From positions 6,870 to 70,869 of the forward strand of contig CAXXWB010000045.1 in assembly GCA_963677505.2 (NCBI GenBank): 64,000 nucleotides of DNA, written 5' to 3'. Shown piece by piece: positions 702 to 38,780 of the stretch (positions within the stretch are counted from its first letter, which is position 1; every line of letters begins with the position of its first letter). The notes beneath the pieces were generated by a model that saw only the letters and a list, made by a program, of their open reading frames with translations, ran no database searches and had not been told where the DNA came from. This DNA is from an uncultured Acidaminobacter sp. GTDB taxonomy: Bacteria; Bacillota; Clostridia; Peptostreptococcales; Acidaminobacteraceae. Position numbers and translations under genes: made by a program.

Positions 702-826
702 GTATAACTCCGAACTTACGTCATTGCCTATTGTCACGCCTTTTGCGGAGAACCGTTCAAAAGTCCCGCCAACTTGCCGCTGTGGCGTCAAGCACGTCAA
801 CGTCGTAAGTTCGTCTTTCGTTATAC
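702..826 (+). repeat. attC site 1 (125-nt class)
   Basis: R'' gtataac 702-708; arms cgaacttacg/cgtaagttcg; enlarged central hairpin ccttttgcggagaaccgttcaaaagt; R' gttatac 820-826. Confidence 0.9.
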
Positions 827-851
827 GCAATAATTCTGCACGTCAATTTGT

Positions 852-1105
852 AAAAGAAAAAAGGCAACCGCAAGAGCTGCCTTATTGAAGATATAAAATT
901 TGTTCAGCCCCGTAGTAGTGGCTAAGGTTGAATTAGTTGCTCTGTTTGGTTTCTTAAATTTAATCGAAACAAACGGTAATCGTATGTCAAAGCCATCGAA
1001 CCATTTAACAAGTGCTTTCATAGGCACCGCCCCCTTTTTCACCAATTTTACTACGGATGCTTTCGCATTTGGCTTACTCGCCTCGGGGAAACGAAGCTGA
1101 ACAAA
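852..1105 (-). ncRNA. Candidate structured RNA (unclassified) ending in an intrinsic terminator, inside cassette 2
   Basis: 10-bp closing helix 899-908/1096-1105; second helix 910-917/1049-1056; minus-strand hairpins ATGC-GAAA-GCAT (1057-1068) and GGC-GAGTAA-GCC (1071-1082); hairpin 944-953/966-974. On the minus strand a stem (861-866/878-883) is followed by a U-tract (852-860). The region looks more G+C-rich than its AT-rich flanks. Confidence 0.4.
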
Positions 1106-1229
1106 TTTAATATCTAAGAGTAACTATAGCATAATAAATTCAAAAATCACAATTTAAATAGAAATTAGGATTTTTGAATTTACATTCAATGTTAAAGTAC
1201 TAATTATAGTCTTAAGGGAGCTGTAAATA

Positions 1230-1601
1230 ATGGACAAACTGCGTTGGGCATATAAATATGTAGAACTGTTTCCAGAACATAAGGGACGTTTGGATGAGCA
1301 TATTAAAGATTATGGAGAGTTACTCGGGCATGTTTTCTTTGGTGATCTCATAAACGAACGACTTTATAATTTAATAAAATATGAAAGAGAGCTAGAAACT
1401 GTAGAAATATTATTTGATTTTATTAATGAAATGTTTAAGTATGGTGATGACGATTGCAAAAATATAATTGAAGTAACTATATTGGAATACTTAGGTGATG
1501 ATGACAAGGTACTAAAACGCAGTAAAAAATACTTAAGTCCTGAACTTATTGCTTTGTCGGATATAGTTGAGGAGTCACTGGGAAGGAAACATTTTGAGTA
1601 A
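1230..1601 (+). CDS. Hypothetical protein (123 aa, acidic, probably all-alpha)
   Basis: ORF with AAGGGAG RBS upstream, followed by an attC. Identical copy at 2161-2532. Confidence 0.7.
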   Translation: MDKLRWAYKYVELFPEHKGRLDEHIKDYGELLGHVFFGDLINERLYNLIKYERELETVEILFDFINEMFKYGDDDCKNIIEVTILEYLGDDDKVLKRSKKYLSPELIALSDIVEESLGRKHFE

Positions 1602-1758: not shown

Positions 1759-1783
1759 GCAATAATTCTGCACGTCAATTTGT

Positions 1784-2036
1784 AAAAGAAAAAAGGCAAC
1801 CGCAAGAGCTGCCTTATTGAAGATATAAAATTTGTTCAGCCCCGTAGTAGTGGCTAAGGTTGAATTAGTTGCTCTGTTTGGTTTCTTAAATTTAATCGAA
1901 ACAAACGGTAATCGTATGTCAAAGCCATCGAACCATTTAACAAGTGCTTTCATAGGCACCGCCCCCTTTTTCACCAATTTTACTACGGATGCTTTCGCAT
2001 TTGGCTTACTCGCCTCGGGGAACGAAGCTGAACAAA
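1784..2036 (-). ncRNA. Candidate structured RNA, second copy (cassette 3)
   Basis: Duplicate of 852-1105. The only difference seen is a 1-nt indel (gggaaacg vs gggaacg) in an unpaired bulge. Confidence 0.4.
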
Positions 2037-2160
2037 TTTAATATCTAAGAGTAACTATAGCATAATAAATTCAAAAATCACAATTTAAATAGAAATTAGG
2101 ATTTTTGAATTTACATTCAATGTTAAAGTACTAATTATAGTCTTAAGGGAGCTGTAAATA

Positions 2161-2749: not shown

Positions 2750-3571
2750 ATGCCAAATGGTAATATTTTGAGAACTTTTGATCAAAATTTGAAAAATAAG
2801 TTTAATGAGCGCTGTTTTATTTATGATAAATATAGACCTGAATATGTAGATGAGTTGTTTAAAGATATTTTTCAAATGAAAATGTTAAATCATAATAGTA
2901 AAGCATTAGAAATTGGAATAGGAACAGGACAAGCAACCAAACCTATTCTTGAAACGGGATGTAGTCTATTGGCGTTGGAAATTGGCGATCAGTTGGCGAG
3001 TTTTACTAAAGAGAAATTTCAGTCTTATGGTAACTTTACTGTTGAGAACAGTTCATTTGAAGATAGCAGCTTAGATGATAATAGCTATGATTTAGTATTT
3101 TCAGCATCTGCATTTCATTGGATTCCAGAAGAGTTTGGTTACTCTAAAGTTTTTAGAATTTTAAAACCCAATGGCGTGTTTGCCCGTTTTGCAATGCATC
3201 CTTATCCAGCAAAGGATAATATAGAGCTTTTTGAAGCAATACAACAATGTTATAAGAAATATTTACCAGAATCAAAACCAGGTCTTGAATATACAGAAGA
3301 AAAGGCTAGAGTAAGAGCAGAATTAAGCATTAAATATGGTTTTATTGACTCAAAATACTACGTTTACAATAGAATTAGGACTCATAATGCTCAAGAGTAT
3401 GTCAAGTTACTTGAAACTATGCACGACCATATAGCTTTGGATAGTAATTTGCGAGAAATGCTGTTTAATGACATTGAGGCTGCTATTGTAAAATATGGAA
3501 ATCAAATCAATGTCTATGATACAATTGACCTTCAGTTGGCTAGAAAAGCAAATATAGAAAATAATGATTAA
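2750..3571 (+). CDS. Class I SAM-dependent methyltransferase
   Basis: 273 aa. Motif I LEIGIGTGQAT; post-I and later motifs DLVFSASAFHWI and LKPNGVF. GGAGG RBS. Confidence 0.8.
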   Translation: MPNGNILRTFDQNLKNKFNERCFIYDKYRPEYVDELFKDIFQMKMLNHNSKALEIGIGTGQATKPILETGCSLLALEIGDQLASFTKEKFQSYGNFTVENSSFEDSSLDDNSYDLVFSASAFHWIPEEFGYSKVFRILKPNGVFARFAMHPYPAKDNIELFEAIQQCYKKYLPESKPGLEYTEEKARVRAELSIKYGFIDSKYYVYNRIRTHNAQEYVKLLETMHDHIALDSNLREMLFNDIEAAIVKYGNQINVYDTIDLQLARKANIENND

Positions 3572-18645: not shown

Positions 18646-19368
18646 AAACCCCCGGTTCTACCGGGGGTTCCAAAGAGCTTTAGCTTTGCCCAAAAAGAAT
18701 ACCTCCTTTTGTTAGAATAATGGTGGTTCGCCAACCGCTATTTTCTAATAAAAGGAGGATCCGAAATTGGATAAGAACAGTTTAGCACACACAACTTGGA
18801 ATTGCAAATATCACGTAGTGTTTGCACCAAAGTATAGACGACAAGCGATTTATGGAAAAATTAAGACAGATGTAGGAAAAATACTGAGGAAACTGTGTGA
18901 ACAAAAGGGCGTAAAAATTCTAGAAGCGACGGCTTGTTCTGACCATGTTCATATGGTTATCGAAATACCGCCAAAGCATAGTGTTTCGAGTATTATGGGA
19001 GATCTAAAAGGAAAAAGTTCTTTGATGATATTTGATAAGCACGCAAACTTGAAATATAAGTACGGAAATCGTCATTTTTGGTGTAGAGGTTACTATGTAG
19101 ATACAGTAGGAAGAAATGAAAAAGCAATAAGAGAATATGTGAAAAATCAACTCCAAGAGGATATAGCTAATGATCAAATAAGTATCATGGAATATGTTGA
19201 CCCGTTTACGGGTGAGCAAGCAGCGAAAAAGGGCAAAAAATAAAAGCTGCTTTAGCAGCAGCCAGTAAACGCAAGCGTTTGGCGAACCAAATCAATGAGC
19301 CTTAAGGCTCACGCGGGCAACATGCCCTTATAGGGCGGAACAAACTACCCGCTAAGCGGGTAGTTTTG
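18646..19368 (+). mobile_element. IS200/IS605-family element (tnpA only); ends approximate
   Basis: Y1 transposase gene flanked by subterminal hairpins aaacccccggttctaccgggggtt (left) and aaactacccgctaagcgggtagtttt (right). Confidence 0.65.
18767..19243 (+). CDS. tnpA: IS200/IS605 family Y1 (HUH) transposase TnpA
   Basis: 158 aa. HUH motif SDHVHMVIE; catalytic-Tyr region FWCRGYYVDTVG. TTG start after AGGAGG. Confidence 0.9.
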   Translation: MDKNSLAHTTWNCKYHVVFAPKYRRQAIYGKIKTDVGKILRKLCEQKGVKILEATACSDHVHMVIEIPPKHSVSSIMGDLKGKSSLMIFDKHANLKYKYGNRHFWCRGYYVDTVGRNEKAIREYVKNQLQEDIANDQISIMEYVDPFTGEQAAKKGKK

Positions 19369-38683: not shown

Positions 38684-38780
38684 TGGCGGGAGTACGTGGG
38701 AATCGAACCCACCTAAGAGGCTCTTAACCCCTCAAACTGGTTTTGAAGACCAGAGGACACACCAGCACCCATCTACCCCC
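38684..38780 (-). tRNA. selC: tRNA-Sec (anticodon UCA)
   Basis: 97 nt on the minus strand: GGGGGTAG..CTGGT-CTTCAAA-ACCAG..GTGGGTTCGATTCCCAC-GTACTCCC-G-CCA. 7-nt anticodon loop with UCA; about 22-nt variable arm; extended acceptor stem; possible 6-bp D-stem with 4-nt loop; encoded CCA. Confidence 0.85.

Follow-up and report, generated by a model that had tools for sequence, protein, structure and literature searches.

A predicted structured RNA with a small open reading frame in a cassette array of an uncultured Acidaminobacter, and its resemblance to type I toxin messenger RNAs

The stretch of DNA analysed here (the window) comprises 64,000 nucleotides (nt) of an uncultured Acidaminobacter sp. 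(assembly GCA_963677505.2, contig CAXXWB010000045.1, positions 6,870 to 70,869). Its first ~26 kb are a cassette array in which repeats of ~130 nt lie between the cassettes. One of these cassettes (~830-1620), which is duplicated in tandem at ~1762-2552, contains on its plus strand the gene of a 123-residue protein and, divergent from it on the minus strand, the element of about 250 nt that is the subject of this work. A first-pass annotation of the DNA had described the element as a candidate structured RNA that is not convincingly coding and might act together with the 123-residue protein in an RNA-protein module. Comparison of the element with its relatives bears out the first part of this description and speaks against the others. 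Judging from compensatory substitutions and strand-specific G-U pairs, the minus strand of the window encodes a conserved folded RNA of about the expected length. The same RNA contains a small open reading frame (ORF) whose codons 1-26 are under purifying selection, and hence the peptide is presumably translated. Molecules of this kind, in which a strongly folded RNA also contains a small ORF, are already known, and the element is built like the messenger RNAs (mRNAs) of type I toxins or the dual-function small RNAs (sRNAs).

Relatives of the element were recovered at seven loci, which are in Clostridium sp. YIM B02500 (L001; GCA_022324665.1, contig JAKGTE010000011.1, ~64.9-71.1 kb), in Logan assemblies (L002, L004, and L005), and in metagenomes of the Joint Genome Institute (L012, L013, and L014). 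They comprise two more genomic contexts of Clostridium type and several contigs from metagenomes. With the minus-strand ORF as query, a word-indexed search resulted in two homologues and a profile search run exhaustively over 1.84 billion representative proteins in three more, and a metagenome scan led to three loci. In an all-versus-all blastn comparison, these loci have only one common block of 206-241 nt with 81-89% identity. The block starts and ends at the closing helix of the predicted fold, and homology stops at the core of this helix, called P1 here (~899).

All helices that had been proposed from the letters of the window were found again. The 10-bp closing helix corresponds to a perfect inverted repeat at 899-908/1096-1105 within longer arms (889-913/1091-1115) of 25 nt that are 88% complementary, and the 8-bp helix 910-917/1049-1056 (P2) is also perfect and is found in the minimum free energy (MFE) and consensus folds. 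The internal hairpin 944-974 is present in the consensus prediction. Towards the 5' end of the minus strand, the ATGC-GAAA-GCAT hairpin with its GAAA loop (1057-1068) is accompanied by two more small hairpins at ~1071-1082 and ~1081-1096. These three hairpins belong to the 5' untranslated region (UTR) of the predicted mRNA and are called P1a, with a C-rich UU(U)CCCC loop, P1b, which reads GGC-GAGUAA-GCC, and P1c, the AUGC-GAAA-GCAU hairpin. The difference in G+C content to the AT-rich spacer, which had also been remarked on, amounts to 0.40-0.47 in the segment versus 0.18-0.23 in 1110-1229. The two cassette copies (copy offset 931/932) differ in one base, an A-run of three versus two at 1089-1091, which had been assigned to an unpaired bulge. 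It is indeed one base and unpaired, but the site is the U-run (minus strand) in the loop of P1a, the first 5' hairpin, and not a bulge. Within the domain closed by these helices, the Shine-Dalgarno (SD) sequence AAAGGGGG is predicted to pair via its AAGG with a CCUU at 924-927, with a mean probability of being unpaired of ~0.3 in 7/7 sequences. As an alternative, the MFE structures of L002 and L005 contain a pairing between the GGGG of the SD and the invariant CCCC in the loop of P1a. The ATG (1019-1021) is located in the loop of an invariant hairpin (1007-1031). The MFE of the minus strand is -79.6 kcal/mol (z = -4.1), and none of 200 shuffled sequences folded equally well. However, the fold of the plus strand is nearly equal (z = -3.9), and therefore the energy alone cannot pick the strand. 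The comparative data do.

In a MAFFT alignment of five sequences, 94.9% of the cells are in standard pairs and 16 pairs have changed on both sides, compared to 6.7 +/- 1.8 pairs in shuffled alignments (0/500 as good) and 0-7 doubly changed pairs in slid controls. The model-fitted alignment of eight distinct rows is 97.3% paired and contains 18 doubly changed pairs versus 9.2 in shuffles. The changes are spread over the helices. In the outer part of P1, the window has UUAAAUUUG/CAAAUUUUA where the others have UUCGUUUUG/CAAAACGAA, which are three consecutive double changes that keep the pairing. In P2, ..GUA/UAC.. is replaced by ..GCG/CGC.. (UA/UA to CG/CG) in L004 and L005, and U-G and G-U variants are present in L001, L002, and L013. 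P1a shows a compensatory change from U-A to C-G, P1b from G-C to A-U, and P1c from U-A to C-G, and all changes at paired positions within the 84 nt at the 5' end leave the pairing intact. On the minus strand of the window 98.2% of the core pairs are canonical, including 63 G-U pairs, compared to 85.7% if the alignment is read on the opposite strand. Because these 63 G-U pairs work on the minus strand only, the strand is settled.

That the segment is not convincingly coding had been concluded from the ORFs of similar length on both strands. These frames exist, at 821-1045 on the minus strand, running through the terminator-like hairpin, and at 900-1100 on the plus strand. However, the minus-strand ORF starting with MKALVKWFDGF behind AAAGGGGG shows the codon-like third-position variation that the first-pass annotation itself had named as the sign of a real small protein. 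In codons 1-26 the variable sites are distributed over the codon positions 1/2/3 as 6/1/13 (13/20 at the third position). The summed Nei-Gojobori proportions of synonymous (pS) and nonsynonymous (pN) differences are 0.353 and 0.034, respectively, which is a ratio of 0.10. The consensus of the peptide is MKALVKWFDG[FIV]D[IV]R[LI]PF[VLD]SIKFKKPN, and the replacements are mostly conservative. Codons 27-41, with a pN/pS of 1.19, do not show any periodicity, and change in this part tracks the RNA pairing and not coding. The C-terminal tails past the closing helix are unrelated between the loci, and there is neither a conserved stop codon nor a conserved C-terminus. In total the ORFs encode 48-75 residues, of which 26-41 belong to the conserved part, and the ORF of L005 has an in-frame deletion of 9 nt. 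Both signals can be seen together in L004, where the changes TTT>TTC in codon 17 and CCA>CCG in codon 25 are both synonymous and jointly turn a U-A pair into a C-G pair.

In every homologue, the plus-strand ORF remains open over the full length of the block, and its pN/pS is 0.16. It shares its wobble positions with the sense ORF, and thus the third-position bias alone cannot choose between the strands. As a coding frame it was rejected on other grounds. Its replacements are radical, with a mean BLOSUM62 score of -1.35 versus +0.45 for the sense frame, it has no SD and no ATG, the periodicity begins precisely at the sense ATG, and the changes outside the wobble positions are at the sense position 1 (six) and not 2 (one). 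That the antisense frame is open, and at several loci is called as a gene-sized ORF, probably just follows from the sense ORF and its composition.

Promoters and terminators were identified as consensus matches, which are not proof of transcription, and consensus scans can miss promoters. Most copies of the element carry their own promoter-like and terminator-like sites in equivalent positions, with sequences that are not homologous to each other. In addition to the site in the window, promoter-like sites were found at L004 (TTGACT-17-TATCAT, 10/12, with an upstream TG) and L005 (TTGCGA-17-TATAAT, 10/12), and a weaker one, TTGACT...TGnGATAAT, was read by eye only at L001. The -10 hexamers end ~7 nt from the helix in the window and L004, and ~13 nt in L005. 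The minus-strand stem with a U-tract that had been listed for the window is a terminator-like hairpin at 861-883 followed by a T-run. Each homologue has a hairpin and a T-run just past the helix, whose sequence is unrelated between the contexts, and seven of the hairpin pairs are changed on both sides. The features of the element and of its cassette are compiled in Table 1.

Table 1. Coordinates of the element and of the other features of its cassette in the window.
Feature	Position	Strand	Basis
Promoter-like site TTGTGA-18-TATAGT with upstream TG	1123-1152	-	consensus scan; ~7 nt between the end of the -10 hexamer and the start of the closing helix
P1, 5' arm, AGAUAUUAAAUUUGUUCAGC	1096-1115	-	inverted repeat; 20 bp in the consensus fold, with 5 doubly changed pairs versus other loci
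5'-UTR hairpins P1a, P1b, and P1c	1057-1095	-	one compensatory double-change pair each; 100% of cells paired
P2, 5' arm, CCGUAGUA	1049-1056	-	pairs with 910-917
Shine-Dalgarno sequence AAAGGGGG	1030-1037	-	the same at every locus; spacing of 8 nt to the ATG
ORF, codons 1-26, MKALVKWFDGFDIRLPFVSIKFKKPN	944-1021	-	third-position bias; pN/pS 0.10; ATG at 1019-1021
Anti-SD CCUU in the invariant block CAACCUUA	924-927	-	helix 7 of the consensus fold; pairs invariant
3' arms of P2 (910-917) and P1 (889-909)	889-917	-	inverted repeat; consensus folds
Rest of the 66-residue ORF, codons 27-66 and stop	821-943	-	overlaps anti-SD, 3' arms of P3, P2, and P1, and terminator; no protein conservation
Terminator-like hairpin (861-883), then U-tract	851-883	-	consensus scan; likeness in every homologue
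Gene of the 123-residue DUF7674 protein, divergent, in the element's cassette	1230-1601	+	Pfam PF24722, E = 1.9e-18
Second copy of the whole unit	1783-2083	-	inverted-repeat arms 1821-1845/2022-2046; terminator 1793-1815; promoter-like site 2054-2083; covariance model 300 bits

The sites around the element contain a few further repeats. A promoter-like site that is aimed back into the element is present in L001 and L002 only (in L001 TTGCCA-16-TAATAT, from 3210 to 3183). In L001, a 22-nt direct repeat, TGGTGG.AATC.AGTTACTGCA, at 2792-2813 and 3202-3223 brackets the promoter, the element, and the terminator, and its downstream copy contains the back-pointing site. The motif of this repeat is also found upstream of the element in L012 (857-880). 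The window has a perfect inverted repeat at 1135-1182, whose arms of 14 nt (TAAATTCAAAAATC / GATTTTTGAATTTA) are separated by 20 nt. The repeat overlaps the -35 regions of both divergent promoter-like sites, which are those of the element and of the DUF7674 gene, and could be an operator. It was not found upstream of the element in the other loci.

The element is a new family without an entry in Rfam, Pfam, or NCBIfam. It had not been recognised as any named RNA family in the first place, and a scan of Rfam release 15 with gathering and permissive thresholds did not reveal any match on the element's strand at E <= 10 for the window, L002, and L004. The only Rfam hits in the window are a selenocysteine transfer RNA (tRNA-Sec) and STnc490, both away from the element. 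The peptide did not match any family in Pfam, NCBIfam, or PADLOC. A weak PDB match (E = 0.016-0.04) to the segment FDGIGIRLP..KPN of a short-chain dehydrogenase/reductase (SDR)-type epimerase/DenD was taken as chance because it covers a short internal motif and the fold is unrelated. KWFDGIDIRLP bears a likeness to the strand-loop-strand 'KWGNSxAVRIP' of MazE/AbrB, which is not backed by any profile hit. Blastn searches of plasmid and phage records and two scans of viral contigs did not result in any relative. A genome scan with the exact core pattern AAGGGGGCGGTGCCTNNNAAAGC gave a single hit, which is due to chance and falls into the gene of an IS200-like transposase in a Bdellovibrio metagenome-assembled genome. 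The family is very rare, with fewer than ten loci in the very large collections searched and only six homologues of the peptide among the 1.84 billion representative proteins.

The elements lie in variable cassette-like or defence-island regions. In L001, the neighbours are a ThsB-like TIR protein and a DUF4238 protein, in L005 an OLD/AriA-like ATPase-nuclease and a PrimPol-helicase, and in L012 to L014 an unknown 354-residue gene, a PDC-M14A-like protein, and IS66. L013 and L014 represent the L012 locus in other metagenomes. The convergent 354-residue gene is broken there by inserted ORFs that, by eye, read like transposases, and an ORF that looks IS66-like by eye is located upstream, while the element itself, with V18D, is intact. 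L004 contains the element alone between direct repeats of ~95 nt (432-540 and 1088-1200) that are 81% identical and spaced 659 nt. These repeats flank the element between two co-directional genes, which suggests that repeats of another family form a cassette-like array there. Their fold as single-stranded DNA is not convincingly attC-like (z = -0.9 and -1.4). Attenuation of a downstream gene by a leader peptide was considered and rejected, since in the window and in L012 to L014 the element is followed by a convergent gene or by an attC site.

These contexts bear on the proposal that a purely non-coding RNA forms a two-component module with the DUF7674 protein. The divergent arrangement of the two in one duplicated cassette, the 14-nt inverted repeat between their promoter-like sites, and the reality of the RNA structure would fit such a module. 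However, the covariance model R1, which scores 296-329 bits on every copy of the element, did not detect any element beside the DUF7674 homologues at L006, L007, L010, and L011 (4/4 loci). At the five other independent element contexts there is no neighbour annotated as or matching DUF7674, and apart from the element those five contexts have no DNA block in common with the cassette of the window. Because DUF7674 relatives occur without the element and the element occurs with other neighbours, or alone as in L004, the unit is autonomous. Together with the codon-like variation of the ORF this makes the module very improbable. An explanation at the level of the DNA would be an element similar to a miniature inverted-repeat transposable element (MITE), with terminal inverted repeats, or an integron-related recombination structure of single-stranded DNA. 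It could account for a discrete block of ~210-230 bp with inverted ends of 13-25 nt and unrelated flanks inside an attC-type array. However, the flanks, which were read directly, do not contain a target-site duplication, and besides the cassette duplication, whose tandem copies are the only ones in the 64-kb window, there is one copy per locus. In addition, the outer arms vary and yet stay complementary, the 63 G-U pairs work on one strand, and coding selection as well as flanking promoter-like and terminator-like sites are not accounted for. We therefore regard a DNA element as hardly credible.

We favour, with a probability of roughly 45%, that the element is a self-contained minus-strand mRNA whose own fold gates translation, that is built like a type I toxin mRNA, and that encodes a toxin-like peptide. 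The transcription unit would extend from ~1116 to ~852 (~265 nt), and its product would be both a folded RNA and an mRNA. In the predicted fold, the 5' end pairs via the 20-bp helix P1 with a segment that lies within the ORF, in its 3' part, and this helix would enclose the three 5'-UTR hairpins, P2, and a domain in which the SD AAAGGGGG is paired to the downstream CCUU. The finished transcript may therefore be poorly translatable, being locked by the 5'-3' helix and by the downstream anti-SD. During transcription, before the downstream anti-SD has been made, the upstream C-rich loop may cover the SD. The peptide would be produced only if the fold is opened or bypassed, and a translating ribosome would unzip the 3' arms of P3, P2, and P1. 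By analogy, a toxin-like, addiction-type or stress-released small peptide is the most likely role, because the architecture is that of type I mRNAs and because the element, a small module with its own promoter-like site, is found in defence islands and integron-type cassettes of bacteria of Clostridium type.

The descriptors of type I toxin mRNAs collected in T1TAdb are an SD/anti-SD pairing, 5' stem-loops, a 3' terminator, and a long-distance interaction between the 5' and the 3' end (PMC8594479), and the model of aapA3 comprises successive anti-SD elements (PMC6733600). Like hok/Sok of Escherichia coli plasmids and aapA/IsoA of Helicobacter pylori, the element would be a transcript of ~250 nt with promoter-like and terminator-like sites and a small ORF (usually <60 residues in type I systems). 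They also share the 5' stem-loops, an SD that, in the element, is predicted to pair with a far-downstream anti-SD within a domain closed by 5'-3' pairing (here P1 with its 20 bp and five doubly changed pairs), an upstream SD-complementary loop that possibly acts co-transcriptionally, and the location in accessory or mobile regions (PMC6733600, PMC8594479). However, the match is one of architecture only and not of family membership. Type I toxins are usually hydrophobic, have a charged C-terminus, and are predicted to contain a transmembrane segment (PMC6563280), whereas the peptide of the element is basic and polar and not a hydrophobic membrane helix. Furthermore, an antisense RNA gene was not found at the element, there is no sequence similarity to catalogued toxins, and the long-distance helix has its 3' arm within the ORF and not in a 3' UTR.

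Several observations weigh against this toxin-like reading. The pairs of the SD/anti-SD and of the AUG hairpin, on which the proposed gating would depend, never vary, and covariation therefore has no purchase on them. The number of distinct sequences is only seven, in about five lineages. Consensus scans of the window, L004, and L005 did not reveal a conserved antisense promoter near the element, and the all-versus-all blastn comparison of the loci did not reveal a second conserved block near it. The conserved part of the peptide reaches a maximal Kyte-Doolittle mean of 0.78 over 19 residues and does not contain a transmembrane or hydrophobic segment. In line with this, the grand average of hydropathy is -0.7 to -0.05 in the homologues outside the window, and only the unconserved tail of the window is hydrophobic (1.51). 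Two replacements in the conserved part are radical, W7G in L004 and V18D in L013 and L014. An AlphaFold2 model based on a six-sequence alignment is uninformative, with a predicted local distance difference test score (pLDDT) of 57.8 and no fold in the conserved part.

C-rich loops of sRNAs of Firmicutes can target Shine-Dalgarno sequences. The element might be a dual-function riboregulator that pairs in trans, for example with its invariant UUCCCC loop to G-rich ribosome-binding sites, and in addition encodes a small peptide. The own promoter-like and terminator-like sites, the 5' hairpins that are under structural selection and of which one has the invariant C-rich loop, and the ORF under selection are in agreement with such a molecule, and dual-function RNAs are an established class (PMC12612679). 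Like RNAIII/hld of Staphylococcus aureus and SR1/SR1P of Bacillus subtilis, the element would be a short structured RNA with a translated small ORF and a C-rich loop complementary to SDs. However, a target cannot be named, and the C-rich loop is equally well explained as an anti-SD acting on the element's own ribosome-binding site. In contrast to the two known RNAs, the element is rare and accessory, which would be unusual for a core regulator, and the 3' part of its ORF is constrained mainly by RNA pairing. We consider a riboregulator rather unlikely. The element could also be an ordinary small-protein gene with a non-toxic module of 26 residues, and the fold would then set the stability of the mRNA or sense a signal, e.g. 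as a thermometer. This would be supported by the purifying selection on codons 1-26, the strong and invariant ribosome-binding site, and a peptide that is not membrane-like. But the 5' UTR of 84 nt and the 3' part of the ORF are conserved in sequence and structure at least as strongly as the protein is constrained, and the stop codon and the C-terminus are not conserved, so that such a gene seems unlikely, too. Going beyond the toxin-like reading, the family might represent a new class of very small 'one-RNA' modules, toxin-like or related to defence, that are horizontally shuffled in cassette arrays and defence islands of Clostridium. In these modules a single transcript of ~250 nt would be the switch (with its 5'-3' lock and anti-SD elements), a possible riboregulator in trans (with its C-rich loop), and the mRNA of a non-membrane effector peptide at the same time, the fold replacing the antitoxin gene. 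We consider this quite improbable.

In one block of ~210 nt, two signatures can thus be separated, RNA covariation in the 5' UTR and the 3' part of the ORF, and codon-level purifying selection in codons 1-26. This calls for caution in RNA discovery because a candidate that passes the covariation test can still be an mRNA. If the toxin-like reading is true, type I-style locking of an mRNA would extend to a non-membrane peptide without an obvious antisense partner, and a new small module would have to be added to those of the integron-type cassettes and defence islands of Clostridia. The general importance is limited by the rarity of the family unless more distant relatives exist.

The cassette array looks as if it were of the integron type, in a Firmicute host, and the element is inverted in it with respect to the remaining cassette genes. 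Its attC-like 3' ends (n=24) are found at positions 695-26229, on the plus strand in every case. The cassette of the element is bounded by attC-type sites folding as imperfect hairpins, as in integron gene cassettes. These flanking repeats fold as bulged hairpins of single-stranded DNA with the order R''/L''...L'/R' (z = -2.7 for 695-830 and z = -4.6 for 1630-1762). An integrase was not seen in the window, and there is no integrase-sized ORF within 26-31.6 kb. The integrase is either located beyond the window or absent. To our knowledge, integrons are not usually reported in Clostridium-like bacteria. In a homologue search, the phosphoribosyl pyrophosphate (PRPP) synthetase of the window was found to be 80% identical to that of Clostridium sp. 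HMP27, which puts the host among Clostridium-like bacteria. Integron cassettes without an ORF and with promoter activity have been described (PMC6557892). The element resembles such 'ORF-less' cassettes and integron toxin-antitoxin cassettes in its attC array, its own promoter-like site, and the Phd/Doc-type pair in the neighbouring cassette. It differs in that there is no known two-gene pair and in that it also occurs outside attC arrays (L001, L005, and L012).

The adjacent upstream cassette (68-627) contains two overlapping genes, for a DUF2281-like protein of 60 residues (E = 3e-5) and a Fic/Doc-family protein of 126 residues (E = 8e-12), in a Phd/Doc-type toxin-antitoxin arrangement that is followed by a terminator-like hairpin at 626-643. 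Further inside the array, the STnc490 match (63 bits, above the gathering score) at 18647-18755 is located directly upstream of an ORF of 158 residues (18767-19243) that, by eye, resembles a Y1 transposase of the IS200/IS605 type. It seems that an IS200-type 5' UTR and its transposase have been inserted in the array. The tRNA-Sec gene is located on the minus strand at 38688-38780 and scores 70.2 bits against Rfam RF01852.

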